DNA of 64,000 nucleotides from Patescibacteria group bacterium (GCA_038063995.1 JBBTUA010000007.1:5219-69218), one strand, 5' to 3'; shown: positions 37,991-64,000, numbered from the stretch's first letter. A program made the numbers and translations. Notes: generated from the sequence alone by a model not told the origin.

Positions 37991-38023
37991 CCTTGTACCT
38001 TTTTTCTTGTAACCTTTCTTCTG

Positions 38024-38072: not shown

Positions 38073-38262
38073 CCGAGAATTTATAATAATATAAATGGCT
38101 AATATAACCGGCCCCTAGCGGTATCGGTTTGCCTATCAAAAACGAAACTGCTTGCCTGGTTTTTGTGAAGATTTCCATTTTAAGATGGGATGCTTCTTGA
38201 AAAATTCCGATTGAGATAATCGGCTAACCCAGATAATCTTGAAAAAGATTATCGGTGATTTG

Positions 38263-38440: not shown

Positions 38441-38543
38441 TATTTTTGATTCAAATACTTTATCCAGCCGTTGGTCATTCTGGAGATTTCCTGCAAGTCA
38501 GAATCGAATTCAAGATATTTGTTTTTAATTAAACCAATGCAAC

Positions 38544-38948
38544 GTGACAAGCCAGTTGTTCGCCAATATCTATCTGAACGAACTTGATCAATTTGTAAAG
38601 CATAAATTTAAAATAAAATATTACATCCGTTATTGCGACGATTTCGTAATTCTTGGCGAAAATAGAAACGATTTATTTTTGATGGCTGAGAGAATCAATG
38701 GGTTTTTCAAAGAAAGTTTGAATTTATCTCTTCATTCTGACAAGATAATCATCAAGAAGTATAAACAAGGCATCGATTTTCTCGGATATGTAGTTTTGCC
38801 TTATCACCGCGTTTTAAGGACGAGAACAGAAAGAAGAATATTCAGAAAAATAAACAAAAATAATAATCAGTCCGTTCAATCTTACTTAGGCGTTTTGAAA
38901 CACTGCAATAGTTATGAAGTCAAAAAGAAACTGTTAAAAATATTATGA
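38544..38948 (+). pseudogene. reverse transcriptase C-terminal fragment (motifs 4-7), DGR-type
   Basis: N..TSQLFANIYLNELD (motif 4 with the SQ typical of DGR RTs), YIRYCDDFVIL (YxDD), GIDFLGY; frame opens at a GTG after a stop at 38526, so motifs 0-3 are missing. Confidence 0.75.
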
Positions 38949-48114: not shown

Positions 48115-48465
48115 TTGATACTGAATTCGATACAATCCGGAGAGTATTCAACGGATAGTGGCATGGACGGCTTGCCATACGATTCGCCACGTTCAACCAG
48201 TGGTCTGATAGATAATATTATTTGGCTTCACAATGATTTAAAGAACTTTAAATATAATCACGGCGGCTATAAGGCATTCAAAATCAACGACCCGAAACCG
48301 AGAAATATCCATAAGGCAACAGTCAGAGACAGATTATTGTACCATGCTATTTACCGGGTTCTTTATCCTTTTTTTGATAAGACTTTCATTTTTGATTCTT
48401 TTTCTTGCCGAAACAAAAAAGGAACTCACAGAGCTTTAAATAGATTCAGATTTTTTGCATATTAA
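48115..48465 (+). pseudogene. reverse transcriptase N-terminal fragment (motifs 0-2), DGR-type
   Basis: GGYKAFKINDPKPRNIHKATVRDRLLYHAIYRVL .. FDSFSCRNKKGTHRALNR matches GxYxxxxFxIxDPKxRxI, DR..hhA and SYGFRxGRsxHxAl; ORF stops before motif 3. Confidence 0.7.
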
Positions 48466-48553
48466 GTTAAAATTAAAAATAAAATCCTTCAAAGAATAAT
48501 TATTGCCTAATAAAAATCTTTGTGTTAGTATTTTTCTGCTAAATCGAAAACAT

Positions 48554-48964
48554 ATGCCGACTTTCAGGCAGTTATTGAAAAACCCGAGAAAGATTATAAA
48601 GGCGAAGACAAAATCGCCGGCTTTAGCTTTCGGTTTCAACACAAACAAAAATAAGCCGGTTGATTATTTTTCTCCTTTCAAAAGAGGAGTTTGCGTAAAG
48701 GTAACAACCGTGACTCCCAAAAAGCCGAACTCGGCTTTGCGGAAAATCGCCAGAGTCCGTTTGACCAACGGCCAGGAAGTGACCGCATATATTCCCGGAA
48801 TCGGCCATAATCTTCAGGAGCACTCGGTGGTGATGATAAGAGGCGGTCGGGTCAAGGATCTGCCTGGAGTCAGATACCATATTGTAAGGGGGATGCTGGA
48901 CTCGGCTGGAGTGGAAGGCCGGAAACAGCAAAGAAGCAAATACGGAGCAAAGCGCCCGAAATAA
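48554..48964 (+). CDS. rpsL: 30S ribosomal protein S12
   Basis: MPTFRQLLK .. [10 protein letters not shown]; start set at internal Met. Confidence 0.9.
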
Positions 48965-48988
48965 ATTATCAATTCTATATTCTAATCT

Positions 48989-49456
48989 ATGAGACGAGGA
49001 AACGTTCCGAAAAGAAAAATTGAACCAGACATCAAATACGAAAGCGGTTTAGCCGCCAAATTTGTTAATTATGTAATGAAAGACGGGAATAAAACCATTG
49101 CCCGAAAAATTGTTTACGGGGCTTTGGAAAATTCTGAAAAAAAACTCGGCAAAGGAGCTCTCGAAATTCTCGAACAGGCTATAAGAAATGCCGGGCCGGA
49201 AATGGAACTGCGGTCCCGCCGTATCGGAGGCGCCAATTACCAGATTCCTTATCCGGTCAAGCCGGAAAGAAGAATTACTTTGGCCTTGCGCTGGATAATT
49301 GAAGCGGCCAGAGCGAAAAGCGGGCAGTCAATGATAGAAAAATTAACCCAGGAGTTAGCCGATGCTTATTCTAACACCGGAGCGGCGGTTAAGAAAAAGA
49401 TGGATACTCACAGAATGGCTGAAGCAAATAAGGCATTCGCCCATTTTGCCTGGTAG
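48989..49456 (+). CDS. rpsG: 30S ribosomal protein S7
   Basis: MRRGNVPKRKIEPD... Confidence 0.9.
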   Translation: MRRGNVPKRKIEPDIKYESGLAAKFVNYVMKDGNKTIARKIVYGALENSEKKLGKGALEILEQAIRNAGPEMELRSRRIGGANYQIPYPVKPERRITLALRWIIEAARAKSGQSMIEKLTQELADAYSNTGAAVKKKMDTHRMAEANKAFAHFAW

Positions 49457-49460
49457 CAGA

Positions 49461-49497
49461 AAGAATATAGAACAAAGAATATAGAACATAGAACGAG
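49461..49497. repeat. AGAATATAGAA-family repeat, left arm flanking the four-helix-bundle gene
   Basis: AAGAATATAGAACAAAGAATATAGAACATAGAAC. Confidence 0.65.
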
Positions 49498-49498
49498 A

Positions 49499-49846
49499 AT
49501 GACCAACACTTTTAAAGATTTGATAGTTTGGCAAAAGTCTAAACAACTAGCCGTAGAAATCTATAAACTAACAGAAAAGTTCCCCAAGTCAGAATTGTAT
49601 GGTTTAGTAAGTCAGATGCGCCGAGCGGCAATTTCAATTTCATCAAATATAGCCGAAGGCTATAAAAGGTTTCATAGTAAAGAGAAAAAGCAATTGTTTT
49701 CAGTTGCTTCTGGCTCCGGGACTGAATTAGAAAGTCAAATAGAGATAACTAAGGAATTATTCCCAGAAATAGATTTTTCAAAATCTATTTTACTTTTAGA
49801 AGAAATAATGAAAATATTAAACAACTTTGTTAAAAAGTTGTCTTAG
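49499..49846 (+). CDS. four-helix-bundle protein of the 23S rRNA intervening-sequence / Avd family
   Basis: DLIVWQKSKQLAVEIYKLTEKFPKSELYGLVSQMRRAAISISSNIAEG family signature (the family that includes DGR Avd); flanked by inverted AGAATATAGAA repeats; inserted between rpsG and fusA. Confidence 0.75.
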   Translation: MTNTFKDLIVWQKSKQLAVEIYKLTEKFPKSELYGLVSQMRRAAISISSNIAEGYKRFHSKEKKQLFSVASGSGTELESQIEITKELFPEIDFSKSILLLEEIMKILNNFVKKLS

Positions 49847-49850
49847 TTTT

Positions 49851-49886
49851 GAATTCTATATTCTAAGTTCTATATTCTAAATTCTA
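49851..49886. repeat. AGAATATAGAA-family repeat, right arm in inverted orientation
   Basis: GAATTCTATATTCTAAGTTCTATATTCTAAATTCTAT; reverse complement matches the left arm. Confidence 0.65.
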
Positions 49887-52003
49887 TGCCGCGTGATTAT
49901 CCCATTGAGAAAACAAGAAACATTGGCATCATTGCTCATATAGACGCCGGCAAAACAACCGTAAGCGAGCGCATTTTATTTTACACCGGCGTTTCCCACA
50001 AAATCGGAGAAGTTCACGAAGGGGAAGCGATAATGGACTGGATGGAGCAGGAACGGGAGAGAGGCATCACTATCACCGCCGCCGCGACAACGGTTTTTTG
50101 GATTCCCACATATTTAAGAGAAATCCAAAACAGAAAAGAATTTGAATACAAGATAAACATAATTGATACTCCGGGGCACGTTGATTTTACCGTTGAAGTC
50201 GAACGTTCCCTTAGAGTTTTAGACGGAGCAGTAGTTGTTTTTGACGGAGTCGCCGGAGTCGAACCCCAGTCAGAAACCGTTTGGCGTCAGGCTGATAAAT
50301 ATAAAGTTCCCAGAATTTGTTTCGTAAATAAGCTAGATAGGCTTGGCGCTTCGTTTGAACGTTCTTTTCAGTCAATTTTGGCAAGGCTTACCCCAAATGC
50401 GGTAAGGGTGCAGATTCCTGATGGTGAGGAAGACAAATTCACCGGCGTAGCCGATCTTTTGAAAATGAAATTTTACCGTTTTGAGGGCAAGTTCGGCGAG
50501 TCAACCGTTGAAAGTGAAATTCCAGATAATCTGAAAGAAGCAGCCCAGAAATACCATCACGAACTGATTGAAAAAATAGCCGAAAACGACGACGAGCTCA
50601 CGGAACTGTTTTTGGAAGGCAAAGAAATTCCTTTGGAAAGATTAATTGCCTCTTTAAGAAAGTCAGTTTTAAATTATAAATTGGTTCCGGTTTACTGCGG
50701 TTCGGCTTTAAAAAACAAAGGGGTCCAACTGGTTTTGGACGCCGTGATTGATTATCTGCCATCTCCGATCGAGGTTCCGCCGGTCAAAGGGGTTAACCCG
50801 AAAACCGGAGAGGCCGAAGAAAGGCATCCAAAAGACGAGGAGCCCTTTACTGCCTTGGCTTTTAAAGTAGCTACTGATCCTTATGTCGGTCAGCTTACCT
50901 TTTTCCGCGTTTATTCAGGAATTTTAAAAGCCGGTTCTTATGTTTTGAATGTAACCAAAAACGAAAAAGAAAGAATCGGCCGGATTTTGCGGATGCATGC
51001 CAATGAAAGACAGGAATTGTCCGAAGTTTATGCCGGCAACATCGCGGCCACGGTCGGTTTGAAATCCACCCGGACCGGCGATACGCTTGCCGATCCCGGT
51101 TGGCCGGTTATTTTGGAGGAAATAGTTTTTCCGGAGCCGGTCATATCTTTAAGAATCGAACCCAAGACAAAAGCTGACCAGGAAAAAATGTCTCTGGCTT
51201 TAAAACGTTTGTCTGATGAAGATCCGACTTTCAGAATCAGGAGCGACAGCGAAACAGGCGATACAGTCATTTCAGGAATGGGCGAATTGCATCTTGAAAT
51301 CATTGTTGACCGGATGAAAAGGGAATTTGGAGTCGTGGCTAATATCGGCCGGCCTCAAGTTGCTTACAAAGAAACAATCCAAGGTTCAACAGAAGTTGAG
51401 GGAAAATATATACGCCAGTCGGGTGGAAGAGGTCAATACGGCCATGTTTGGCTGCGCCTTGAACCACTTGAGCAAGGTAAGGGTTTTGAGTTTGTGGATG
51501 CTATAAAAGGAGGGACGATTCCGGATGAATTTATTCCAGCCATTGAAAAAGGAATTATGGAGGCTAAGGAGAAAGGAGTTTTAGCCGGTTATCCGATGAC
51601 TGATTTTAAAGCGACAGTGTATGACGGTTCTTTTCATGAGGTTGATTCTTCGGAGATTGCTTTTAAAATCGCTGCTTCTTCGGCTTTTCAAGATGGGGCC
51701 AAGCGCTCGAAACCAGTTATCCTCGAACCGATTATGAAATTGGAAGTCATAGTTCCGGAAAAGTTTATGGGCGAAACAACCGGAGATCTTTCAAGCCGCC
51801 GGGGCCAGATTCTGAATATTTCAGATCGCGAGAACTTGAATCTTAAAGTAATTGATGCTAAAGTTCCTCTTGGCGAAATGTTCGGTTATGCCACAGTTTT
51901 GCGTTCGCTTACCGAAGGCAGAGGCACATTTACTATGGAATTTTCAAACTATGAAGTGGTGCCGCAAAACGTGGCTGATCAAATTGCCGCCGGCAAAAAA
52001 TGA
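49886..52003 (+). CDS. fusA: elongation factor G
   Basis: [10 protein letters not shown]1 motif; EF-G domains II-V. Confidence 0.9.
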
Positions 52004-52248
52004 ATGACGAAATAAAAAATTTGGTTTCCAAACTTGGAGCCTTAGCCATATTAGAAGAAGGCGAGCCGAAGTTTGTGATTCTGTCTTACGAAAAGGCCAA
52101 AAGCCTAATTATCCACAAAAACATTGACAATTCCGTATATTCTGATAAAGATAGTAGTGAAGAGATAGATAGATTGAATAGGGAGATTCTTATCTTGAAA
52201 GAAGAAGTGGCCCAAAAGGAAAGGGAATTATCAGTAGGTAATTTATAG
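52000..52248 (+). CDS. hypothetical small protein between fusA and tuf (weak Phd/YefM-like N-terminus)
   Basis: 82 aa; [18 protein letters not shown] then coiled-coil; ATGA-overlapped with fusA. Confidence 0.35.
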
Positions 52249-52328
52249 GCAAAATATGATAACTTCGGAAAAGCTATTTTTTTTCGCTCATCAGAAGTTA
52301 TAAAATTTTCCTAAAATTTTTAAAGAAT

Positions 52329-53534
52329 ATGGCCGAAAAATTTGAAAGAGGCAAGATTCACGTCAACATCGGAACAATAGGTCACGTTGACCATGGCAAG
52401 ACCACATTAACTGCGGCAATGCTTCATGTTGCCGGAGAATTGCTTAATGATGAAGGCTATAAAGCCAGGGTTGAGAAAGTTGATCAAATCGACAAGGCTC
52501 CCGAGGAAAAAGCTAGAGGAATTACCATTGCTTTGCACCATTCGGAATTAGAAACTCCTAAAAGGCATTATGCTCATGTCGATGCTCCCGGACACGCCGA
52601 CTACATTAAGAATATGATCACCGGCGCGGCCCAGATGGACGGAGCCGTTTTGGTTGTTTCGGCGCCCGACGGTGCCATGCCTCAAACTAGAGAGCATATA
52701 TTGCTGGCCCGTCAGGTTGGGGTGCCTTCAATAATCGTCTTTTTGAATAAAATAGACCAGGTTCAGGATCCTGAATTGATTGATCTGGTTGAAACCGAAA
52801 TCAGAGAGCTTTTGAACAAGTATCAATATCCCGGCGACACTACGCCGGTGATCCGCGGTTCAGGATTAAAGGCTTTGGAAGCCAAGTCAAAAGATGACCC
52901 GGCGGTAGCTCCGATTCGGGAACTTTTAAAAACCATAGACGAATACATTCCTGATCCGGTCAGAGATACCGAAAAGCCTTCTCTTATGCCCATTGAAGAC
53001 GTCTTTTCAATCGAAGGGCGAGGCACCGTGGTAACGGGAAAAGTAGAAAGAGGCAGAATAAAACTTAACGAAGAAATTGAAATTGTCGGAATAAGGCCTA
53101 CCCAAAAAACCATAGTCACTGGGGTAGAAATGTTTAACAAACAGTTGGATGAAACCATCGCCGGAGATAATGTCGGTTTGCTTTTGAGGGGAGTAAAGAA
53201 AGAAGATGTTTCGCGCGGGCAGGTAATTGCCAAGCCCGGCTCAATTACTCCTCATACCGAATTCGAGGCTGAAATTTATATTTTGACGAAAGAAGAGGGC
53301 GGACGCCATACCCCGTTCTTTGCCGGTTATAAGCCGCAATTTTATGTCAGAACAACTGATGTCACCGGCGAAGTAATTCTTCCTGAAGGAACCGAAATGG
53401 TAATGCCCGGCGACACCGTGAATTTGAAAATTAAATTAATTGCTCCAATCGCCTTGGAAGAAAAGATGAGATTTGCCATCAGAGAAGGAGGCAAGACAGT
53501 CGGTGCAGGAGTGGTGACAAAAATAAGTAAATGA
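52329..53534 (+). CDS. tuf: elongation factor Tu
   Basis: [13 protein letters not shown]; full-length EF-Tu. Confidence 0.95.
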
Positions 53535-53578
53535 TAGGACTTACTCTCTAGCGGGTAAGTCCTTTTGGTTCCTTAACT

Positions 53579-53923
53579 ATGACTTCGAGTCCGGCAAAGA
53601 AGAAAGAAGAAGGAAAAAATGAACAGCGGATAAGGATTCGTTTGAAAGCTTTTGATAGCCGCATTATTGACCGGTCAGTCAAGCAGATCATGGAGACTTT
53701 GGAAAAAATGGATGTTCAGGTCATCGGGCCGGTGCCGTTGCCCACCGAAATATCAAAATTCACGGTTAATCGATCAACCTTTGTCCATAAAGACAGCCGT
53801 GAGCAGTTTGAAATGAGGATTCACAAAAGGCTGATTGAGATTCAAAACCCCACGCCGAAAATAATCGATGCTTTGATAAATTTAAGTCTGCCAGCGGGAG
53901 TAGATATTGAAATCAAGATGTAA
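53579..53923 (+). CDS. rpsJ: 30S ribosomal protein S10
   Basis: [11 protein letters not shown] core, with a short Lys-rich N-terminal extension. Confidence 0.9.
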
Positions 53924-53951
53924 ATTGATTTCAATATCTGTTCCTGAAATA

Positions 53952-54091
53952 TATATGGATAGGAATCCATATATTTACGGCATTCGATTGTAATAAGTAA
54001 TTACTTATTACAATCTCTTTTGTAAATATGAACAGATTTTATAAAATTTAATTTTTTTTAGCGATTTTAGCGAGCCCCGCTAAGCGGGGCT
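53952..54091 (+). promoter_or_regulatory. structured rpsJ-rplC intergenic region with three hairpins/palindromes
   Basis: TATATGGAT agga ATCCATATA (53952-53973); perfect 28-bp palindrome ATTGTAATAAGTAA/TTACTTATTACAAT (53987-54014); GCCCCGC taa GCGGGGC then TTTAATTT (54069-54098). Confidence 0.5.
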
Positions 54092-54100
54092 TTAATTTAT

Positions 54101-54538
54101 ATGGCAACAGTTCAAGGCAAGAAAATAGGAATGACCCAATTTTTTAGAGAGGATGAAGCAGTCCCGGTCACTTTAATAGAAGCTGATTTTGGAGAAGAGC
54201 TTGAAATAAAAGAGGGCGACAAAGTTAAGGTGAGGGGAATTTCAAAAGGAAAGGGTTTTCAGGGAGTGGTAAAGAGGCACGGTTTTTCGGGTTTGCCGGG
54301 AAGCCACGGCCATAAAGGAATGGAAAGAGCGCCCGGTTCGATTGGCCAGAGATTCCCCCAGCATACTTTAAAAGGAATGAGAATGGCCGGCCATATGGGC
54401 GCGGCTAATATAACCGTCAGAAATCTTGAAGTGGTTAAGATAGATAAAGAAATCAAAGTCATAGCTTTAAAAGGAGCGGTGCCCGGAAGAAGAGGGACAA
54501 TGCTGGAAATTTCTAATTATGCAAATAAACTTATTTAA
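54101..54538 (+). CDS. rplC: 50S ribosomal protein L3 (short form)
   Basis: MATVQGKKIGMTQFF. Confidence 0.8.
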   Translation: MATVQGKKIGMTQFFREDEAVPVTLIEADFGEELEIKEGDKVKVRGISKGKGFQGVVKRHGFSGLPGSHGHKGMERAPGSIGQRFPQHTLKGMRMAGHMGAANITVRNLEVVKIDKEIKVIALKGAVPGRRGTMLEISNYANKLI

Positions 54539-55184
54539 TCAAAATGCAGAAATAATCGGAAAAGTGGAATTGAATGACTCGATTTTCGGCGTTGAAATGA
54601 ATCCTGATTTGATGCATCAGGTTATTGTCGCTCAGGCAGCCAATTCAAGGTCTATTTTAGCCCATGCAAAAGGAAGAAGCGAAGTAAGGGGCGGCGGCAA
54701 AAAACCTTGGCGCCAGAAAGGAACCGGCCGGGCAAGACACGGTTCGATCCGCTCTCCGATTTGGAAAGGAGGAGGCGTGACTCATGGGCCTTTGAAAGAA
54801 AAAGTTTATTCCCAAAAAATAAATAAAAAAGCAAAACAGAAAGCTTTGTTTATGGCTTTGAGCTCGAAAGTAAAAGACGGTCAAGTCGCTGTTATTGATT
54901 CGGTTTTGCTGGACGAAGCCAAGACTAAAAAAATGAAAGAGATTTTCGATAAAGTTTCCAATATTCTGGAGGGCTACAAGAAAAATAAAAAAAATCAGGA
55001 TTCGATTTTACTGGTTCAACCCTCTTCGGACAAAAAAATTTTCCGGGCCGTCAGGAATCTGGTTTTTGCCAAAGCGGTCCGGGCTGATAATTTGAATATT
55101 TCGGAAATTTTGGAAAAAAAATATTTAGTTTTGCTTAAAGATGCAATTCCGGTAATTGAAAAAACATATCTTAAAAATATTTAA
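54519..55184 (+). CDS. rplD: 50S ribosomal protein L4
   Basis: GGGKKPWRQKGTGRARHGS. Confidence 0.9.
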   Translation: MQINLFNQNAEIIGKVELNDSIFGVEMNPDLMHQVIVAQAANSRSILAHAKGRSEVRGGGKKPWRQKGTGRARHGSIRSPIWKGGGVTHGPLKEKVYSQKINKKAKQKALFMALSSKVKDGQVAVIDSVLLDEAKTKKMKEIFDKVSNILEGYKKNKKNQDSILLVQPSSDKKIFRAVRNLVFAKAVRADNLNISEILEKKYLVLLKDAIPVIEKTYLKNI

Positions 55185-55203
55185 ATTTTTAAATATATTC
55201 CAT

Positions 55204-55578
55204 ATGGCTTTATTTAAAAAAACAAAAAAAGATGAAAAAGTTGAATCAAAAGAAAAAACTACTGAAAAAAAAGTGGCGGATTTGCCTGAAGACAAAGACC
55301 CTAAGCTTTATGAGGTTATAAAAAAACCGATAGTGACCGAAAAGGCAGTCAATTCTTCGGGGAGCGGCAAGTATGTTTTTATGGTTTCTAAAAAAGCAAA
55401 TAAAACCGAAGTGGGTAAGGCCATTGAAAGGCTTTACGATGTCAAAGTAAGAGCTGTAAATATATCCAATGTCACCGGCAAAAAAAGACAGCTCGGCCGT
55501 TTTGAGGGATGGAAGCCTGGTTTTAAAAAAGCGGTCGTTGCTTTAGAAAAAGGATTTTCAATAGATATTCATACATAA
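55204..55578 (+). CDS. rplW: 50S ribosomal protein L23
   Basis: start at internal Met following the TTTAAATAT..CATATG motif; Lys-rich N-terminal extension. Confidence 0.8.
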   Translation: MALFKKTKKDEKVESKEKTTEKKVADLPEDKDPKLYEVIKKPIVTEKAVNSSGSGKYVFMVSKKANKTEVGKAIERLYDVKVRAVNISNVTGKKRQLGRFEGWKPGFKKAVVALEKGFSIDIHT

Positions 55579-55582
55579 TTCA

Positions 55583-56407
55583 ATGAAACACTATAAACCA
55601 ATAACTCCGGGGAGAAGACAGATGACCGGATACGATTTTAAAGGCTTATCAAAAGCCAGACCTTTGAGATCTTTGGTTATAGATTTGAAAAAGAATCCGG
55701 GGCGGGCTTCAAACGGAAGAATAACTTCAAGGCATAAGGGCGGCGGCCACAAAAAACTTTACAGGCTTATTGATTTCAAACAAAACAGATTTGATATTCC
55801 GGCTCGCGTTCAATCAATAGAATACGATCCTTACCGAAGCGCGAGAATCGCTTTAGTCAGCTATGTTGATGGAGAAAAAAGATATATTTTATCGCCTGAC
55901 GGCCTCAAGTCTGGAGATAAGATTCAATCATTTTCCGGCAAAGGAGGGATTGATATTGGAAACAGGATGAAATTAAAATTTATTTCCCAAGGGACTCTGG
56001 TTCATAATATCGAAATCAATCCGGGCCAAGGCGGCAAAATCGTCAGATCAGCCGGCACATCCTGTCAGGTTTTGGCCACAGAAGGCAGATATACTCAATT
56101 GAAAATGCCTTCCGGTGAAATAAGAATGTTTTTGTCGGAAAGCCGGGCTTCAATAGGCCAGGTTTCGAATCCGGAGCATATTCATATCAATTTTGGGAAA
56201 GCCGGCCGCTCAAGGTGGAAAGGCATTCGGCCGCGGGTCAGAGGTTCGGCTATGAATCCAGTTGATCATCCTCATGGCGGCGGCGAAGGAGCCCAGCCGA
56301 TAGGTTTATCCGGCCCTAAAACACCTTGGGGAAAGCCTGCCCGCGGAGTTAAAACCAGAAAGAGAAAAAAGAGATCAAGTAGATTAATTTTGAAGCGAAG
56401 AAAATGA
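55583..56407 (+). CDS. rplB: 50S ribosomal protein L2
   Basis: HPHGGGEG. Confidence 0.95.
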   Translation: MKHYKPITPGRRQMTGYDFKGLSKARPLRSLVIDLKKNPGRASNGRITSRHKGGGHKKLYRLIDFKQNRFDIPARVQSIEYDPYRSARIALVSYVDGEKRYILSPDGLKSGDKIQSFSGKGGIDIGNRMKLKFISQGTLVHNIEINPGQGGKIVRSAGTSCQVLATEGRYTQLKMPSGEIRMFLSESRASIGQVSNPEHIHINFGKAGRSRWKGIRPRVRGSAMNPVDHPHGGGEGAQPIGLSGPKTPWGKPARGVKTRKRKKRSSRLILKRRK

Positions 56408-56444
56408 AAATATTTAAATATTTAAATATTTAAACTTTTTATTT
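56408..56444 (+). promoter_or_regulatory. TTTAAATATTTAAAT intergenic motif upstream of rpsS
   Basis: aaaatatttaaatatttaaatatttaaac; same motif family at 55185-55203, 56787-56824, 58100-58151, 58790-58830, 59197-59212, 59519-59537, 60303-60342, 60745-60776. Confidence 0.6.
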
Positions 56445-56786
56445 ATGTCCAGATCACTCAAAAAAGGCCCATATGTTGATCCAAAACTGATGAAGAAAAT
56501 CAGCCGTCTTAAGCAAGGAGATAAAGCAGTTATTAAAACCTGGTCCAGAGATTCTACTATTGTTCCTGAAATGGTTGGTTTCACTTTCGGAGTGCATAAC
56601 GGCAAAATTCATATTCCTGTTTTCATTACCGAGGAGATGGTCGGGCATAAATTGGGAGAATTCAGTTTGACCAGAAAATTCGTGAGGCACGGAGGAAAGA
56701 TGCAGAGAGAGATTGAGGCCCAAGCCAAATTAAGGGAAATAGAGGCGGCTAAAGCTGCAAAGGCCACCGAAGAAATTAAAAAATGA
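56445..56786 (+). CDS. rpsS: 30S ribosomal protein S19
   Basis: [12 protein letters not shown]. Confidence 0.9.
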
Positions 56787-56824
56787 TGTTTAAATATTTA
56801 AATGTTTAAATATATAAATTATAT

Positions 56825-57376
56825 ATGCCGCAAATTACCGCAAAACTTAATTATTTGAGAATCGCTCCCCGAAAAGTAAGGGCTGTGGTTGATTTGATCA
56901 AGGGCTTGGATGTTGATTTGGCTGAAGCTCAGTTGAGGTATCTGACAAGACGGCCAGCCAAACCTTTGCTTAAACTTTTGAATTCTGCCGTGGCTAACGC
57001 CCGCCAGAACGCCGGGCTCAATAAGAATCATCTTTACATTAAAGAGATTACCGTAGATGAAGGGATGAAATTGAAAAGGTATAAACCAAAGGGTTTCAGT
57101 CTTATTATGCCGATTCAGAAAAAAACATCTCATATAAGAATAGTTTTGGACGAGCTTTCTGAAGAAACAAAGAAAAAGAAAGACGAGCTTATAGCCAAAA
57201 TGCCGAAATTAGAAGCAGTTAAAGAAAAACCAGCGGATTTGAAAGTTGAAAAAGAAGCAAAAGCCGAAAAACCGAGATTTGGAAAAGAAAAACAAATTCC
57301 AAGTACGCAAAAGAAAAGCAGGTTCGGCGAGATAAAGACTTTAGGTCGGAGGATTTTTAGAAGAAAAGCGGTATGA
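56825..57376 (+). CDS. rplV: 50S ribosomal protein L22 with Lys/Glu-rich C-terminal extension
   Basis: NYLRIAPRKVRAVVDLIKG. Confidence 0.85.
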   Translation: MPQITAKLNYLRIAPRKVRAVVDLIKGLDVDLAEAQLRYLTRRPAKPLLKLLNSAVANARQNAGLNKNHLYIKEITVDEGMKLKRYKPKGFSLIMPIQKKTSHIRIVLDELSEETKKKKDELIAKMPKLEAVKEKPADLKVEKEAKAEKPRFGKEKQIPSTQKKSRFGEIKTLGRRIFRRKAV

Positions 57377-57385
57377 AATAATGAA

Positions 57386-57466
57386 TAGCTCTCCTTCGCT
57401 AAAGCTTCGGAGGAGCACTTCTTCGCTAGAAGAAATGCTTGCACTTCGAAGCTCCGAAGGAGCGAA
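57386..57466. repeat. nested inverted-repeat element (cgaag/cttcg family) inserted between rplV and rpsC
   Basis: TCCTTCGCTAAAGCTTCGGAGGAG followed by CACTTCTTCGCT .. AGCGAAGAAGTG inverted repeats. Confidence 0.7.
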
Positions 57467-57469
57467 GAA

Positions 57470-58099
57470 GTGGGACAAAAAACTTCACCAATTTCAATGA
57501 GAATAGGTTTTACCCAGGATTGGCGCTCCCGGTATTTTTCCGAACGCGAAATGATCAAGTACCTTAAAGAGGATGTAAAGATCCGCCAGTTTTTGGAGAA
57601 GAAATTAAGATTTATGAATGTAGATCGGATTGAGATCGAGAGAACCGCCGGCCAGCTGAAAGTCATTATTTTCACCTCGCGGCCCGGTTTGATTATCGGC
57701 CGGGCAGGAAGCGGAAGCGAAGAGCTTAAAAAAGAAATTGACAAGCTTATCAAAAGCTCTGTTCCTGTAAGGATTGAAATTCAGGAATATAGAAATTCTG
57801 AAAGTTCTGCGGCTATTATGGCTGAACAGATTATTGAGAGAATCGAAAAAAGAGTGCCTTTCCGCAGGGTAATAAAACAGGCATTGTCGAAAATAATCTC
57901 TAACCGGGAGGTAAAAGGGGCAAAGATCGAAATTAAAGGCCGTTTGGACGGAGCCGAGATAGCCAGAACCGAGCATTTAGAGCAGGGTTTGATGCCTCTT
58001 CAGAAATTGACCGCTGATATCGATTTTGCTAAAAATACTGCTTACACCACCTATGGAACAGTAGGGGTGAAGGTATGGATATACAAAAGGAATATTTAA
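57470..58099 (+). CDS. rpsC: 30S ribosomal protein S3
   Basis: (GTG start) GQKTSPISMRIGF; KH domain. Confidence 0.9.
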   Translation: MGQKTSPISMRIGFTQDWRSRYFSEREMIKYLKEDVKIRQFLEKKLRFMNVDRIEIERTAGQLKVIIFTSRPGLIIGRAGSGSEELKKEIDKLIKSSVPVRIEIQEYRNSESSAAIMAEQIIERIEKRVPFRRVIKQALSKIISNREVKGAKIEIKGRLDGAEIARTEHLEQGLMPLQKLTADIDFAKNTAYTTYGTVGVKVWIYKRNI

Positions 58100-58151
58100 A
58101 CAAAAATATATTTAAATGTTTAAATATTAAAAGTATTTAAATATATTCATT

Positions 58152-58559
58152 ATGGCTATTCAACCAAGAAGAATAAAACATCCAAAAGTTCATAAAGGCC
58201 GGCTTAAAAAATTTGCAAGCCGCGGTTTGAATCTGGCTTTCGGTTCTTTCGGTTTAAAGTCATTGGAATCAAGCTGGGTGAAAGTTAATCAGATTGAAGC
58301 GGCCCGCAGGACGCTTTTAAGATATCTTCAAAAGGGCGGAAAGATATGGATCAGAGTTTTTCCGGATAAACCGAGAACCGCAAGAAGTCCGGAGCTTGGA
58401 ATGGGAGGCGGAGCCGGCGCATTAAGCCATTTTGTCGCTCCAGTCGAAGCAGGCAGAATTTTGTTCGAGTTGGACGGCATTCCGGAAGAGACCGCCAAAG
58501 AAGCCCTGGAATTGGCCAGTCATAAATTGCCGGTTAAAACAAGATTTATTAAACGATGA
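58152..58559 (+). CDS. rplP: 50S ribosomal protein L16
   Basis: [14 protein letters not shown]. Confidence 0.9.
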
Positions 58560-58789
58560 TTAAGAGAAAATTAAAAGGATTAGTTGTTTCTGACAAAATG
58601 GATAAGACCATTGTTGTTTCAATTATCCGTTTGAAGAAGCACCCGAAATACAAAAAATATTTCAAGGTGACAAAAAGATTCAAGGCTCACGATCAAAATA
58701 ATGAGTATCACATCGGAGACAAAGTTTTAGTCGAAGAAACAAGGCCGATTTCAAAAGAGAAGAGATGGAAAGTAATAGGAAAAGTTTAA
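58556..58789 (+). CDS. rpsQ: 30S ribosomal protein S17 (no L29 gene between rplP and rpsQ)
   Basis: [16 protein letters not shown]. Confidence 0.85.
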
Positions 58790-58830
58790 ATGAGAATATT
58801 TAAATATTTAGACATTTAAATGTATTCGGC

Positions 58831-59196
58831 ATGATTCAATTGAGAAGCATCATATCAGTAGCAGATAATTCGGGCGCCAAAATAATAGGCGTGATTAGGG
58901 TTTTAAAAGGGCATAAAGGGAAATACGGGGAAATCGGAGACATTGTGGTCGGTTCAGTTAAAGAGGCTGAACCGAGAAAAGCAATTAAGAAAAAAGATAT
59001 AGTTCACGCTTTGATCGTAAGACAGAGAAAGCCGTTAAGAAGAAAAGACGGCTCATATGTCAGATTTGACGATAACGCCGTAGTCATAATAGAAGGCAAA
59101 GAGCCGAAAGCAACGAGAATTTTCGGGCCTATCGCCAGAGAGGTTAAGGAAAGAGGTTTTAGTACGATTGCTTCAATGGCCGAGGAACTTGTTTGA
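58831..59196 (+). CDS. rplN: 50S ribosomal protein L14
   Basis: MIQLRSIISVADNSGAK. Confidence 0.95.
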   Translation: MIQLRSIISVADNSGAKIIGVIRVLKGHKGKYGEIGDIVVGSVKEAEPRKAIKKKDIVHALIVRQRKPLRRKDGSYVRFDDNAVVIIEGKEPKATRIFGPIAREVKERGFSTIASMAEELV

Positions 59197-59212
59197 GTTT
59201 AAATATTTAAAT

Positions 59213-59518
59213 ATGAAGATTAGAGCAGGCGACACAATAATAATGATTACTGGAAAAGACCGGGGCAAAACCGGCAAAATTTTACGTTCTTTTCCCCAAG
59301 AAAATAAAGTTGTTGTGGAAGGGTTGAATTTAGTTAAAAAACATCAAAGGCCGCGCCGCCAGGGGCAGAAAGGCGAAATTATATCATTGCCTAGTTCAGT
59401 TGGTATTTCAAAAGTTATGCTTGTCTGCCAGCATTGCAAAAAGCCTTCCCGTATGGGCTTAAAGCATCAAGATGGGAAAAAAATAAGAGTTTGCAAAAGA
59501 TGTAAAGGAGAAAACTGA
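59213..59518 (+). CDS. rplX: 50S ribosomal protein L24 with C-terminal zinc-ribbon-like CxxC..CxxC
   Basis: MKIRAGDTIIMITGKDRGKTGKI; start at internal Met after the TTTAAATAT motif. Confidence 0.85.
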   Translation: MKIRAGDTIIMITGKDRGKTGKILRSFPQENKVVVEGLNLVKKHQRPRRQGQKGEIISLPSSVGISKVMLVCQHCKKPSRMGLKHQDGKKIRVCKRCKGEN

Positions 59519-59537
59519 AAATATTAAACATTTAAAT

Positions 59538-60086
59538 ATGTCAAGATTACTTCAAAATTATAAAGAAAAAACAGCCCCTGCTATGCAGGCTAAATTTGGG
59601 TATAAAAATATAATGGCTGTGCCCAGAATTTCAAAAGTCGTAATCAACGTGGGTTCCGGCAAAGCAGATTCTGATCCAAAATTGAAGGATAGAATTCAGA
59701 AAGATTTAGCTGCCGTTACCGGCCAACGGCCGGCTATAAAAAAAGCGAGGAAGTCAATTTCCGGATTCAAGGTCCGAGAGGGAATGATTGTCGGTTTAAC
59801 TTCTACATTGAGAGGAAAAAGAATGTATGATTTTTTGGAGCGGTTGATATCTATCGCTTTACCAAGATCGCGCGATTTTCGTGGAATCAGCACCAAATCA
59901 TTTGACCATAAAGGAAGCTTGAACATCGGATTAAGGGAGCAGATAATTTTTCCCGAAGTGTCTTATGAATCATCAAAGGATATTTTTTCTTTTCAGATTA
60001 CCGTCGCCACTACAGCCAAAACCAAACAAGAAGGAATCGAGCTTTTAAAATTTATGGGATTTCCGCTTACAGAAGCAAAAATCTGA
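59538..60086 (+). CDS. rplE: 50S ribosomal protein L5
   Basis: RLLQNYKEK .. NIMAVPRISKVVIN. Confidence 0.9.
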   Translation: MSRLLQNYKEKTAPAMQAKFGYKNIMAVPRISKVVINVGSGKADSDPKLKDRIQKDLAAVTGQRPAIKKARKSISGFKVREGMIVGLTSTLRGKRMYDFLERLISIALPRSRDFRGISTKSFDHKGSLNIGLREQIIFPEVSYESSKDIFSFQITVATTAKTKQEGIELLKFMGFPLTEAKI

Positions 60087-60116
60087 TATTTCGAAATTCC
60101 GATATATCTAAATCGT

Positions 60117-60302
60117 ATGGTTAAAAAATCATTATTTGCCAGATTAGAAAAACCGAGAAAGTATAAAATCCGAACAAGGAATCATTGTTTTATTTGCGGA
60201 AGAACCAAAGGCTATATGAGAAAGTTCGGATTATGCAGAATACATTTTCGGGAATTGGCGTCAAGAGGTGAAATTCCGGGAGTAAAAAAATCATCATGGT
60301 AA
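60117..60302 (+). CDS. rpsN: 30S ribosomal protein S14 type Z (zinc-binding)
   Basis: 61 aa; [18 protein letters not shown]. Confidence 0.9.
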
Positions 60303-60342
60303 TAATGACGTTTAAATATTTAAATATTTAAATATATTCGAT

Positions 60343-60744
60343 ATGGATACAATTTCAGACTTTTTCATCAGAATAAAAAATGCTTACCTGGCTAAAAAAG
60401 ACCGGGTGGTTATTCCTTTTTCAAGAATGAAATATCAGTTAGCCGAGATTTTAGAAAAAAAAGGTTTTATTTCCGCTGTAAGGAAAAAGAAAAGAATAAA
60501 GAAAAACGGATATGGCGAGATTCTGCTTGATTTGAAGTTGAAATATGACCATAATGAATCGCCCCTTAATGATATAAAGCTTGTTTCCAGGCCCAGCCGA
60601 AGGATTTATTTGAAAAAAGATGAAATTAAACCAGTGAGAGACGGGTATGGAATATTAATAATTTCAACCTCTCGGGGTATTATGACCGGCGAAGAGGCTA
60701 AAGAACTGGGCCTTGGCGGCCAGGCCATCGCCGAGGTATGGTAA
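60343..60744 (+). CDS. rpsH: 30S ribosomal protein S8
   Basis: DTISDFFIRIKNA. Confidence 0.9.
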   Translation: MDTISDFFIRIKNAYLAKKDRVVIPFSRMKYQLAEILEKKGFISAVRKKKRIKKNGYGEILLDLKLKYDHNESPLNDIKLVSRPSRRIYLKKDEIKPVRDGYGILIISTSRGIMTGEEAKELGLGGQAIAEVW

Positions 60745-60776
60745 TTACAACATTTAAACATTTAAATATATTAAGT

Positions 60777-61340
60777 ATGTCACGGATCGGAAAACAGCCA
60801 ATTAAAATTCTGCCAGACACTCAAGTTAAAATTGAAGGCGGTTTTATCTATGTAAAAGGGCCTAAGGGTGAGATGGTCAAGCCGATAAATAAATCGGTTA
60901 ATGTCGAGATCGCGGAAGGAGAAATACGGGTTAGTCCGAAAAGCACTTCTAAAGAAGCAAGGGCTCTTTGGGGCACTTATCGCGCTTTGATAAATAATAT
61001 GATAAAGGGAGCAAAGGATGGTTTCGAAAAGGTTTTAGTTTATGAAGGAATCGGATTCAAATCAGAAGTAAAGCAGGATTCATCGGCTGAATCGGGAAAA
61101 GTTATTCAGCTTAACGTCGGTTTTACTCATCCGGTAATAGTTCCGGCGCCTAAAGGCATTGATTTTAAAACAGAGAAAAACCAGATAACGGTTTCTGGCG
61201 CGGATAAAGAACTGGTTGGCCAGACAGCCGCGAATATTAGAAAAGTTAAGCCGCCAGAGCCTTATAAGGGCAAGGGAATCAGGTATAAAGATGAAGTGAT
61301 ATTAAGAAAAGCCGGTAAAAAAGCAGTGACCACTGGATAG
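60777..61340 (+). CDS. rplF: 50S ribosomal protein L6
   Basis: MSRIGKQPIKI; start at internal Met. Confidence 0.9.
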   Translation: MSRIGKQPIKILPDTQVKIEGGFIYVKGPKGEMVKPINKSVNVEIAEGEIRVSPKSTSKEARALWGTYRALINNMIKGAKDGFEKVLVYEGIGFKSEVKQDSSAESGKVIQLNVGFTHPVIVPAPKGIDFKTEKNQITVSGADKELVGQTAANIRKVKPPEPYKGKGIRYKDEVILRKAGKKAVTTG

Positions 61341-61394
61341 AATATAGAACACAGAATATAGAATCTGATTCTATATTCTAAATTCTACATTCCA
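61339..61394. repeat. AGAATATAGAA-family palindromic repeat between rplF and rplR
   Basis: GAATATAGAACACAGAATATAGAAT ctga TTCTATATTCTAAATTCTA; a 20-mer is shared with the ileS coding copy at 23481-23515. Confidence 0.7.
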
Positions 61395-61395
61395 A

Positions 61396-61722
61396 ATGGA
61401 TAGCAAAACAAAACGGGAAAAAAGAATAATAAGACATAAACGCGTAAGAGCTGTTATTAAAGGAACGGCAGCGCGGCCGAGGCTTTCTGTTTTCCGTTCA
61501 AACAAACACATTTATGCCCAGTTGATTGATGATACAAAAGGAATAACTTTGCTTAGCTCTAGCGATAAAAAATCGACTGCTTTAAAAATAGGAGAAGATT
61601 TGGCAAAGAAAGCGGTTGAAAAAGGAATAAAAGAGGTCGTTTTTGACCGAGGCGGCTATAAATATCATGGCCGAGTCAAGGATATTGCTGAAGGAGCAAG
61701 AAGCGGCGGTCTAAAATTATGA
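61396..61722 (+). CDS. rplR: 50S ribosomal protein L18
   Basis: [18 protein letters not shown]. Confidence 0.9.
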
Positions 61723-62255
61723 ATAAAGAAAATCCTATTGTAAATACTTCCAGCCCGGTTTTAGAAGGAGCCAAATCGGAAAAAGAAATTATTGCCCGGT
61801 TGGATAATAGAGAGGTTCAAGAGTATGAGCAGAAAGTTTTAGATATTGCCAGAGTGACCAGAGTCACGAAAGGAGGAAAGAGATTTACTTTCCGGGCGGC
61901 CATTATTATTGGCAATAAGGCCGGAAAAGTCGGATTTGGAATCGGAAAAGGCGCTGATGTGGCTCAATCAGTTGAAAAAGCCTTTAAGCAGGCAAAAAAG
62001 CATTTGATCAATGTGATCTTTAAAGATACAAGCATTCCTCATAGAATCGAAGCAAAAATGAATAGCGCCGTGGTATTTTTAAAGCCCGCGCCTCGCGGAA
62101 GCGGAGTAAGGGCCGGCGGGCCGATGAGAGTTATTGCGAAACTGGCCGGCATAGAAGATATCAGCGGAAAAATAATTTCCAAAACAAACAACAAAATAAA
62201 TATCGCTAAAGCGACAATAGAAGCGTTGAAGAAGTTAAGAGTTAAAAGTTCATAA
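61719..62255 (+). CDS. rpsE: 30S ribosomal protein S5 (no L30 gene follows)
   Basis: [16 protein letters not shown]. Confidence 0.9.
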
Positions 62256-62303
62256 AGTTTGTAAAGTTATAAAGTTTTTACTTTATGAACTTGTAACTAA
62301 ATT

Positions 62304-62753
62304 ATGCAATTACACGAAATAAAACCTTCAATCAAAAGAAAAAATAAAAAGCGCGTCGGCCGGGGAGGAAAGCGCGGAACTTATTCGGGCAAGGGTTTGA
62401 AAGGCCAGAAATCCCGCGCCGGAGCCGGAATAAAGCCGGGTTTTCGGGGAGGAGACACGCCGCTTTGGAAAAAATTCCACAAATCCCGAGGCGCCACGAA
62501 AAAGCTTGAAATAAAAAAGCTCGGTTTTCAGCTTAGAAATCCGAAACCCGCGATAGTGAATCTCAAAGATTTAAATAAAAGATTTGCCGACGGCGAAGTG
62601 GTTTCGCCAAAAACCTTGTTTGAGAAAAAACTGGTGAAAAGCACAAGAAGGGGAGTTAAGATATTGGGGAAAGGAGAACTTCGCAAAAAGCTGGTTTTTA
62701 AAAATGTTCTAATGTCCCAATCAGCTAAAGAAAGATTAAAGAATGACAGATAA
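62304..62753 (+). CDS. rplO: 50S ribosomal protein L15
   Basis: GRGGKRGTYSGKG. Confidence 0.9.
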   Translation: MQLHEIKPSIKRKNKKRVGRGGKRGTYSGKGLKGQKSRAGAGIKPGFRGGDTPLWKKFHKSRGATKKLEIKKLGFQLRNPKPAIVNLKDLNKRFADGEVVSPKTLFEKKLVKSTRRGVKILGKGELRKKLVFKNVLMSQSAKERLKNDR

Positions 62754-64000
62754 ATTTTTAAAGTTATTCAAAATTCCTGATTTGAGAAAAAGATTAATTT
62801 TTATAGTTGCCCTTCTTGTTGTTTTTCGAATAGCCGCCGCAATTCCTATTCCCGGAATCGATACTTCAAGGCTTGCCCAGTTTTTTAGCCAGAACCAGCT
62901 TTTCGGCTTGATCAGCCTTTTTACCGGAGGAGGGCTTGAAACTCTTTCGATCGTTATGCTTGGAGTCGGCCCTTACATTACCGCTTCGATCATTATGCAG
63001 CTTTTAACAATGATTTTCCCCCAGCTTGAGCAAATGTATAAATACGAAGGCGAAGCCGGAAGGCAGAAATTTAACCAGTATTCCAGGCTTTTAACTTTTC
63101 CTTTGGCTTTTTTGCAGGGGTTCGGTTTTTTGACATTGCTTTCGCGGCAAGGCGTCATCGGCGTTTTGTCTTTAAACCAGTGGTTTATCTCTTTGCTGGT
63201 GGTTACTAGCGGAACTATATTTGTAATGTGGCTTGGCGAGTTGATTTCGGAAAAAAATCTTGGCAATGGAATCTCCCTTCTTATTTTTGCCGGCATTGTC
63301 GCTCAAGGGCCCCAGGCAATCAGACAGCTTTATTTCGGCTATGACCCAAGCCAGCTTTTTACTTACATCGGTTATTTCATTTTAGCCCTTGTGATCATAG
63401 GCGGAGTGGTTTATATCACCGAGGCCCAGCGCCAGATTCCGATAAATTACGCTAAAAGAGTCAGAGGTTTTAAAATGTACGGCGGAGTCTCGACTTACCT
63501 GCCGCTTCGGGTGAATCAAGCCGGCGTCATACCAATTATTTTTGCTTTATCGATTCTTCTTTTCCCCGGCATGGTGGCTAATTTCTTTGTCGGCTCGAAT
63601 ATTGCTTTCCTTTCCAATCTGGCCAGAAGCTTTAATATTTTTTTGAATAATCAGTTGATCTACGGATTATTGTATTTTGTTTTGGTTGTCGGATTCACTT
63701 ATTTTTACACGGCGGTTACTTTTGATCCGAAATCAATTTCGGAGAATATTCAGAAACAGGGCGGTTATATTCCCGGCATCAGGCCTGGACCTTCCACTGC
63801 CCAATTTTTAACCCATCTGCTTAACCGGATTACTCTTGTGGGAGCGGTATTTCTCGGTTTGATAGCGGTTTTGCCTTCTCTTGTTCAGGTTTTCACGGGC
63901 ATCACCGCTTTTACTCTCGGCGGCACTTCGCTTTTGATTTTGGTTTCCGTGGCCCTGGAAATGATGAAGCAGATCGAAGGCCAGCTCTCGATGTATGAAT
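62742..64000 (+). CDS. secY: preprotein translocase SecY (3'-partial, runs off window)
   Basis: MTDKFLKLFKIPDLRKRLIFIVALLVVFRIAAAIPIPGID; frame stays open to the window end. Confidence 0.85.

Follow-up and report, generated by a model that had tools for sequence, protein, structure and literature searches.

Tandem self-complementary A/T repeats at gene junctions of the S10-spc ribosomal protein cluster in a Parcubacterium without Shine-Dalgarno sequences

Nine gene junctions in the S10-spc cluster of ribosomal protein (r-protein) genes of a Patescibacteria/Parcubacteria bacterium are occupied by arrays of one short repeat. The cluster lies in the 64-kb stretch of DNA analysed here (GCA_038063995.1, JBBTUA010000007.1:5219-69218; hereafter called the window), which is the part of this genome covered by our analysis and which belongs to a metagenome-assembled genome from Hainich groundwater. 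The repeat unit, TATTTAAA, has 8 bases, consists of A and T only, is self-complementary and occurs in tandem. The repeat family is real, lineage-specific and fast-changing. We propose, with moderate confidence, that the arrays represent a self-complementary, microsatellite-like A/T family located at gene junctions, and that this family is one of several colonising junctions in Parcubacteria that lack Shine-Dalgarno (SD) sequences. A palindromic repeat that had colonised spacers was among the possibilities raised in a first-pass annotation of this DNA, and it is the one favoured here; arrays have been gained, lost or replaced between relatives. The arrays are not a conserved substitute for SD sequences, they are dispensable for any given gene, and they turn over fast.

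TTTAAAT arrays in the S10-spc cluster

The window is identical in sequence to contig CAYHYT010000005 of GCA_964361065.1 and to two other assemblies. Since the sequence is 100% identical in three assemblies, the arrays are not an assembly artefact. According to NCBIfam assignments, the gene order is S10, L3, L4, L23, L2, S19, L22, S3, L16, S17, L14, L24, L5, S14(Z), S8, L6, L18, S5, L15 and SecY, and the genes for L29 and L30 are missing from the cluster.

Direct reading bore out the presence of TTTAAAT-type units in all nine spacers named in the first-pass annotation. The sequence TTTAAATRTTTAAAT has 12 matches, where dinucleotide shuffles give an expectation of 0.02. TTTAAAT was found 18 times in the 701 nucleotides (nt) of S10-spc spacers (GC content 21.7%) versus twice in 6,605 nt of other intergenic DNA, and the double unit TTTAAAYRTTTAAA occurs nine times in these spacers, but neither in other intergenic DNA nor in coding DNA of the window. 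A TTTAAAY heptamer lies within 20 nt of the start codon in 9 of 18 S10-spc genes versus 2 of 59 other genes (Fisher p-value of 1.3e-5). The motif is therefore not equally common in AT-rich spacers in general, as it would be if it lacked a positional relationship to genes, but is tied to S10-spc starts; nine of the ten arrays in the window are located inside this cluster. The infC-rpmI-rplT operon, which also lies in the window, has no TTTAAAT arrays, and the str operon carries a different repeat family. The earlier description of the motif as preceding almost every gene does not hold, because it precedes half of the 18 genes that follow rpsJ; those without an array are rplC, rplD, rplB, rpsC, rpsQ, rpsN, rplR, rpsE and rplO.

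The arrays are 15-55 nt long, have a period of 8 and contain 1-4 units per junction. They are built from TTTAAA cores with linkers that are always pyrimidine-purine (TA, TG, CA or CG) and, as a consequence, every array is its own reverse complement. With head-to-tail units of at most 9 nt and a copy number that differs between relatives, they qualify as microsatellites. The arrays before rplW and rplE each comprise one clean and one degenerate unit, the tail ATATATTC is common to several arrays of the window, and in three cases the upstream stop codon TAA (of the L4, S3 and S17 genes) is found inside the first unit. The last unit had been placed 8-12 nt before the start codon, whereas the actual distances to the ATG are 0, 9, 10 or 13 nt. 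The individual arrays, all on the plus strand, are as follows.

55177-55199, plus strand: array before rplW (L23); two TTTAAAT-type units, the first containing the L4 stop TAA (55182-55184); tail ATATATTC; last unit 9 nt from the ATG at 55204.
56404-56434, plus strand: array before rpsS (S19); three units; ATGA head overlapping the L2 stop TGA; mini open reading frame (mini-ORF) 56404-56433, ending 11 nt before the ATG at 56445; last unit TTTAAAC, 10 nt from the ATG.
56783-56815, plus strand: array before rplV (L22); three units joined by TG; head ATGA, which overlaps the stop of the S19 gene; mini-ORF 56783-56809, ending 15 nt before the ATG at 56825; last unit 13 nt from the ATG.
58092-58147, plus strand: array before rplP (L16); four units, the first containing the S3 stop TAA (58097-58099); tail ATATATTC, 9 nt from the ATG at 58152.
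58785-58830, plus strand: array before rplN (L14); S17 stop TAA inside the first unit; mini-ORF MRIFKYLDI* (58790-58819) followed directly by MYSA* (58820-58834), the TGA of which overlaps the L14 ATG (ATGA); last unit 9 nt from the ATG.
59197-59212, plus strand: array before rplX (L24); two units that make up the entire 16-nt spacer and abut the ATG (0 nt).
59519-59537, plus strand: array before rplE (L5); degenerate ATTAAAC plus one clean unit, abutting the ATG (0 nt).
60305-60338, plus strand: array before rpsH (S8); three units; ATGA head 2 nt past the S14 stop; tail ATATATTC; mini-ORF MTFKYLNI* (60305-60331), ending 11 nt before the ATG at 60343; last unit 9 nt from the ATG.
60751-60772, plus strand: array before rplF (L6); two units joined by CA; last unit 9 nt from the ATG at 60777; open in the L6 frame from an alternative ATG at 60738, so that gene callers give 200 or 187 aa.
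28189-28203, plus strand: the sole array elsewhere in the window; two units, immediately followed by the ATG (28204) of a gene for an AI-2E/YtvI-like permease.

At L23, L24 and L6, the reading frame of the downstream gene stays open through the array, and the arrays mislead start prediction. The starts of the L6, L2, S3 and S10 genes were called differently in identical DNA (gene calls of L001 versus L002).

Junction turnover among relatives and other junction repeats

Ten related Parcubacteria clusters were gathered via L4 homologues (61-85% L4 identity), giving 11 genomes including the window, and orthologous junctions were mapped between the window and these relatives. As controls we used 80 S10 clusters of other, distant bacteria, taken from among the matches listed for the L2 peptide DHPHGGGE. 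Loci are designated by three-digit labels such as L084, as distinct from r-proteins such as L24.

The comparison with orthologous spacers, which had been proposed in the first-pass annotation, revealed that genes which overlap or lie 1-5 nt apart in one genome can be separated by 16-130 nt in another. Among 178 junctions, 34 were overlaps, 26 measured 0-5 nt and 102 measured at least 16 nt, and one and the same junction can be overlapping or tight, occupied by a TTTAAAT array, or occupied by another element in different genomes. For example, the spacer before L15 has 48 nt in the window, whereas all eight relatives with both genes show 1 nt or an overlap there, and the spacer before L16 has 52 nt versus an overlap in seven of the nine relatives with both genes. 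For the junction before S8, the lengths are 1 nt (L089), 40 nt (window) and 130 nt (L085). The earlier statement that operon-internal spacers are far shorter in most bacteria therefore stands in part, since the junctions of this clade run from tight ones to long, element-filled ones, but long, SD-bearing spacers occur in low-GC Clostridia as well.

TTTAAAT arrays recur in L084, L089, L090, L091 and L095, at junctions that are partly the same as in the window and partly others. All 17 matches of the double unit in the relatives lie inside the S10-spc cluster, and none was found in the approximately 10-kb flanks of each relative locus or in the 80 control clusters. Before S3, there are three units in L089, L091 and L095, one in L088 and L093, and none in the window. 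In the closest relative, L084 (85-95% protein identity; 85% in L4), three of four comparable junctions, including those before L23 and S19 where the window has arrays, are occupied by the TTCGATAT family. The S19 spacer array, on the other hand, is 93% identical between the window and the more distant L095, whereas the flanking coding DNA is 77-78% identical.

The TTTAAAT arrays have company. Every spacer of at least 16 nt in the cluster of the window is a repeat or a hairpin, and at least seven families with 7-8-nt units in inverted arrays occur across the clade, namely TTCGATAT, GAATATAGAA, TACGAAT/TACAAAT, TAGTTAA, AATAGC, CCAAAT and AACGCTA. Among them, the TTTAAAT array stands apart as a special case, having a unit that is a palindrome in itself. 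Altogether, 65% of the long clade spacers fold with z < -2, and stems usually span the gap from a few nt past the stop codon to about 0-12 nt ahead of the ATG. The spacers of the window that contain other elements are listed below.

57377-57469, plus strand: spacer before rpsC; 93-nt GC-rich structured element (-39 kcal/mol), ending AAGGAG-N7-GTG.
60087-60116, plus strand: spacer before rpsN; a different family with TTCGAAAT/CGATATATC palindromes.
61341-61395, plus strand: spacer before rplR; GAATATAGAA/TTCTATATTC hairpin (-17.6 kcal/mol, z = -6), kept at the same junction in L085.
62256-62303, plus strand: spacer before rplO; AAGTTTGTAAAG hairpin (z = -2.8).

The rpsN-spacer family (TTCGAAAT/CGATATATC) fills several junctions in L084, L085, L089 and L090. 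In L096, near-identical hairpins of 88-105 nt are present at L22, S3 and L24, and in L017 (Wolfebacteria) a 45-nt TTCGCATTATTAAATTTTAAATTCGCATTATTCGCGAATACTA element precedes L4, L2, L22, L14 and L18. Copy-and-paste spread is evident for these sister families because copies that are near-identical over 90 nt occupy different junctions in L096 and one element recurs before five genes in L017. L017 also has GTTATAAGTTATAGG repeats before five further genes, and the SD-free loci L017, L027 (Uhrbacteria), L073 and L096 have repeat families of their own at the same junctions. The phenomenon of junction repeats is wider than this clade. Shared 11-mers were considered as an index of colonisation and discarded, because this measure is confounded by SD-containing words that are shared in SD-using bacteria.

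Several of these elements have properties of their own. The GC-rich element of about 93 nt (-39 kcal/mol, z = -4.2) is nearly unchanged at different junctions in four genomes (window 57377-57469; L090, before S7; L094, before S7 and S3; L093, before S14). It always ends with ...CCGAAGGAGCGAAGAA-GTG and carries the only canonical-looking SD sequence of the cluster (AAGGAG-N7). All five genes behind it start with GTG, while all orthologues without the element start with ATG, and from its sequence it looks like a mobile cassette that brings its own start codon. A further module that adjoins start codons, ...TTGTAGCTRTTCGCTTCGCTCAYAGACAA...GGC-ATG, was seen immediately ahead of various genes in L085 (S7, tuf, S8), L088 (S8), L091 (tuf, S8), L093 (tuf, S19, L5), L094 (S8) and L095 (L14). 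This module forms a hairpin that stops a few nt short of the ATG, and it often makes up the 3' portion of a larger GC-rich composite of 120-195 nt. Between rpsG and fusA (49457-49885), an ORF of the PF05635 family (23S-rRNA-intervening-sequence protein; 49499-49846) is bracketed by GAATATAGAA/TTCTATATTC inverted repeats. In L085 this ORF is degraded and the repeats remain, and the same repeat forms the ORF-less hairpin before rplR.

In the reading that we prefer, the TTTAAAT arrays would be the simplest member of this wider class of short-period (7-8 nt), hairpin-forming junction repeats. They may have originated by slipped-strand expansion of tight TAA...ATG junctions and may have spread by local copy-and-paste between neighbouring junctions, in line with the tail ATATATTC shared by arrays of the window and with the copied sister families. 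Features that would be expected from slippage are the variation between 1 and 4 units, the position of the stop codon in the first unit (L4, S3, S17) and the ATG that abuts the last unit (L24, L5 and 28204). Once present, the arrays would have no sequence-specific role, and we infer that the cell tolerates them since ribosomes reach the downstream cistron through termination-reinitiation and not through SD-directed entry. A three-unit array is AU-only, weakly folded and has TAA in all three frames. A terminating ribosome could restart at the ATG that often heads an array and overlaps the upstream stop, read a mini-ORF of 8-9 codons, stop about 10-15 nt upstream of the true ATG and restart there.

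Candidate functions of the arrays

The lack of SD sequences concerns the organism as a whole. SD cores at positions -18 to -5 were found for 6 of 77 genes in the window, which equals the background of 7.1%, and for 0-2 of 19 r-protein genes in this clade, in one Wolfebacteria locus and in two Uhrbacteria loci. In control S10 clusters of Firmicutes including Bacillus, 14-18 of 19 genes have one. The absence at the level of the window and across the clade shows that this is a property of the organism and not of the spacers. Accordingly, the earlier remark that SD sequences are missing at the array genes is correct in that the nine array spacers contain no SD core (GGAG, GAGG or AGGA), but these genes are not special in this respect, as the whole window lacks SD sequences. 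Upstream regions are generally AT-rich, with A at -3 in 54% of the genes. No 16S rRNA gene is present in the window or in any relative locus examined. The anti-SD sequence CCTCCT was detectable in only 48% of Parcubacteria, and the consequence of its loss was left open (Tsurumaki et al. 2022, PMC9297842).

Under these circumstances the arrays might act as an A/U-rich translational enhancer that replaces the SD sequence, for example as a platform for bS1, or as an alternative SD sequence if an altered 3' tail of the 16S rRNA were to pair with UUUAAAU or AAAUAUAU. Such a function would fit the absence of SD sequences together with the anti-SD loss reported in Parcubacteria, the position of about 9 nt upstream of the ATG that is fixed in eight genomes, the restriction of the arrays to very highly expressed genes, and the S19 array that is more conserved than its flanks. 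However, the arrays are missing at highly expressed, SD-less genes (tuf, fusA, rpsL, rpsG, rpsJ and rplC) and the motif is absent from 57 of the 59 other genes, which are equally SD-less. Orthologous genes in close relatives have unrelated elements, some of them GC-containing and strongly folded, or no spacer at all. In addition, the 9-nt distance is missing from two cluster spacers and from 28204, where a unit abuts the ATG. The arrays do not increase the predicted accessibility of the start site either: array genes and other genes both had a predicted unpaired probability of 0.47 around the start, and the remaining genes of the cluster had 0.54, and for this reason we also rejected an insulating or accessibility-enhancing role. 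A substitute for SD sequences as a general or necessary signal, as had been suggested in the first-pass annotation, is thereby not supported, and the enhancer in its various forms appears unlikely to us.

The spacing to the start codon and the short ORFs within the arrays were also considered in this context. In 18 of the 24 array spacers, which come from eight genomes, 8-10 nt separate the last TTTAAAY from the ATG; for 11 of these the distance is exactly 9 nt. An ATG is found at -3 to +3 of the upstream stop codon in 7 of 18 arrays versus 8 of 84 other long spacers (p-value of 0.005 in a post hoc test); for arrays with at least three units, the figures are 7 of 14 versus 8 of 84 (p-value of 0.0009). 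Arrays are also enriched for TGA stops upstream. The resulting mini-ORFs of 8-9 codons (e.g. MKIFKYLNI*) end 10-15 nt before the true start at S19, L22, L14 and S8 in the window, and also occur in L089, L091 and L095. The junction from S17 to L14 is a gapless chain of the form TAA/ATG...TAA/ATG...ATGA.

These regularities would be accounted for if the arrays were selected as relay mini-cistrons or reinitiation platforms, with a head ATG(A) that captures the ribosome, a repeat body that encodes a dummy peptide (M-x-(I)-F-K-Y/H-L-N-I/V), and a TAA that releases the ribosome 10-15 nt before the ATG. The overrepresented head ATG of the longer arrays, the mini-ORF positions in four genomes, the S17-to-L14 chain and the fixed distance between last unit and ATG all point in this direction, and a genome without SD sequences needs another route to its internal cistrons. 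Nevertheless, the pattern was noticed first and tested afterwards, and the head ATG is missing in half of the arrays. Moreover, a short ORF inevitably arises from any ATG in front of three units, given that the period of 8 puts TAA in all frames. A relay is not needed for translation either, since orthologous junctions work as overlaps or 1-5-nt gaps. We therefore regard a selected relay as rather unlikely. Both the spacing and the head-ATG regularities can be by-products, and insertion beside the stop codon, ahead of an original spacer of 4-5 nt, could yield a distance of about 9 nt.

The RNA folds of the arrays have little stability (0 to -8.4 kcal/mol; z from +0.8 to -2.7); only 6-14 A-U or G-U pairs are formed. 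A reading of the arrays as RNA hairpins was rejected on these grounds and because sense and antisense strands are equally stable across the 102 long spacers (47:45). Given this equal stability there is no G·U signature of selection at the RNA level, and no G/C arm asymmetry that would be a sign of such selection was found in the long spacers. A scan of the window at Rfam gathering thresholds returned only tRNAs and tmRNA, and a scan of 48400-62800 by E-value gave no hit with a value of 0.2 or less and none that fell on an array. No intrinsic terminator was called on the arrays; terminator-like sites are located only after tuf and before rplC.

These data bear on the idea that the arrays are intercistronic processing signals, where cleavage of the polycistronic transcript would yield mRNAs with short leaders. 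RNase E has a loose preference for RN↓WUU, and each unit fits it. The long clade spacers that are significantly structured, with stems spanning the gap from stop to start, are compatible with processing, as are the GAATATAGAA inverted repeats around the 23S-intervening-sequence-protein ORF, an arrangement that RNase III processes in rRNA. A further point in favour is that lone genes of the window have an extended -10 sequence 6-9 nt before the ATG, as in leaderless mRNAs. Conversely, the pairs formed by the arrays are too few and too weak for a classical RNase III site, and the turnover of junctions counts here as well. We consider processing quite improbable as the function of the arrays. The extended -10 sequences of the lone genes conform to TGnTAnnnT (e.g. 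aaaatgaTAGAAT) and were seen upstream of the starts at 8771(-), 9929(-), 23910, 29979, 41739(-), 46417 and 13609; this geometry suggests that the respective mRNAs may be leaderless.

Internal promoters of the sigma-70 type (TTTAAA-16/17-TATATT), which would provide each gene with its own transcript, were examined as well. TTTAAA or TTAAAA with TATATT at a distance of 16-17 nt occurs before rplW, rplP and rpsH, and ATTACA-N17-TATATT before rplF. All four are 9/12 matches in very AT-rich DNA, and the number of promoter-like sequences in the region, 46, is about 2 standard deviations above the 32 ± 6.6 found in shuffles. The -10-like hexamer ends 4 nt before the ATG, compared with 6-8 nt at the likely real leaderless promoters, there is no room for a -10 in the arrays that abut the ATG, and palindromic arrays would fire in both directions. 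The class was rejected for its wrong geometry, and we deem internal promoters very improbable.

Features of known mobile elements were also looked for. The arrays have no G/C tetranucleotide head of the GTAG/CTAC type. As regards miniature inverted-repeat transposable elements, the arrays, with their 15-55 nt, lack distinct termini, and the ATG...ATG flank that is present in 7 of 18 may be a duplication or a coincidence. Pfam scans of 40 ORFs (1-45.4 kb) and of 48.8-64 kb detected neither RAYT/IS200-type nor other transposase domains.

Some of these observations weigh against colonisation by a neutral repeat. The restriction to the S10-spc cluster is compatible with an operon-specific regulator, and no transposase was seen in the window. 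The three identical assemblies show no strain-level variation in copy number. The peaked spacing of 9 nt is not obviously predicted for a purely neutral element, and the enrichments of head ATGs and TGA stops are both predicted by a designed relay. The identity of the S19 array, which exceeds that of its flanks, suggests constraint, homogenisation or transfer. A functional reading is conceivable in view of the 9-nt spacing and of the ATG(A) head with its mini-ORFs of 8-9 codons. It could even be that the gaps were deliberately filled with lineage-specific cassettes as a punctuation system that followed the loss of the anti-SD sequence, be it by a mini-ORF relay, by hairpins that juxtapose stop and start, or by cleavage marks. 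In any of these forms, such a system seems rather doubtful.

Other features of the window and comparison with known systems

Between rplP and rpsQ, which overlap by ATGA, the uL29 gene is missing (58556-58559), and uL30 is missing between rpsE and rplO (62255-62304). L29 is still present in L096, a more distant relative, and loss of uL29 is on record for some Parcubacteria lineages (Tsurumaki et al. 2022, PMC9297842). The uL3 protein of the window has only 145 aa. The S10-L3 spacer (53924-54100) contains several hairpins, and orthologous spacers measure 114-204 nt in most relatives examined. Its last hairpin, a GC stem with a T-run (54072-54092), ends a few nt before the ATG of rplC. Conservation across relatives extends to this stem and to the GCTTTAGCG box in front of it. 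There is no match in Rfam, and the spacer may act as an attenuator of the S10 operon. An 82-aa ORF between fusA and tuf (52000-52248), without a Pfam match, is kept in all relatives. Its DNA holds a perfect DnaA-box-like word, TTATCCACA, which is conserved, probably because it is coding.

Further away from the cluster, 20314-23895 encodes a class I aminoacyl-tRNA synthetase (Ile/Val/Leu type, 1193 aa) with a PF00300 histidine-phosphatase domain inserted at residues 493-647. Two GC-rich islands (1-2000, 48%; 36000-38950, 53%; about 40% elsewhere) may both be foreign DNA. The first has two genes, one of which (36-671) has a clear SD sequence, and the second contains a deoxyhypusine-synthase-like gene with an SD sequence, a 308-aa ORF without annotation and a fragment of a reverse transcriptase (38544-38948).

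The arrays bear on the question of how the internal genes of long operons are translated in bacteria without SD and anti-SD sequences. In the window and its ten relatives, the most highly expressed operon has stop-start junctions of two kinds, one with tight coupling and one filled by fast-evolving, self-complementary repeats at a fixed distance from the ATG. If neutral, the arrays would clearly exemplify how repeats colonise gene junctions in streamlined genomes, and they would also be a practical hazard for gene callers. If functional, they would point to a testable mechanism of SD-independent reinitiation or processing, and a true punctuation system would be a new solution for internal cistrons without SD pairing. 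We found no description of these arrays in the searchable literature.

The arrays are reminiscent of REP/BIME, ERIC and Correia (NEMIS) elements in being short, self-complementary, present in many copies between co-transcribed genes and variable in their presence. The likeness extends to the sister families, which are plainly copied between junctions. However, the TTTAAAT arrays are A/T-only with 8-nt tandem units over 15-55 nt and have neither a GC stem nor a GTAG/CTAC head. While REP/BIME elements are dispersed extragenically, the arrays are confined to one operon at fixed distances from starts. REP/BIME elements form stable stem-loops; the arrays are self-complementary by construction, with weak RNA folds. 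The microsatellites of contingency loci in Haemophilus, Neisseria and Mycoplasma likewise consist of head-to-tail units upstream of starts, with varying copy number and slippage as a plausible cause. In contrast, the unit of the arrays is palindromic with 8 nt, the hosts are essential r-protein genes and not surface or virulence genes, and there is no sign of phase variation.

Initiation without SD sequences, as known from Bacteroidota and Cyanobacteria, and the bS1-dependent A/U enhancers of Escherichia coli share AT-rich upstream regions and the lack of SD sequences with the present case, but those signals are genome-wide compositional biases, whereas the arrays are discrete, limited to one operon and without a gain in accessibility. 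For termination-reinitiation, a scanning model is said to have been put forward by Adhin and van Duin in 1990, and 70S scanning between cistrons was reportedly described by Yamamoto et al. in 2016. This is the route that we propose across the SD-less gap, and the clade shows the ATGA and TAAATG geometry. Known cases involve short, plain spacers, while the gap here holds a repeat that is able to encode a mini-ORF. Lastly, the RNase III hairpins of the T7 early transcript and mitochondrial punctuation resemble the present junctions in having a structured element in nearly every gap and, probably, downstream mRNAs that are leaderless or have short leaders. The TTTAAAT arrays fold too weakly, however; the sister hairpins fit this comparison better.

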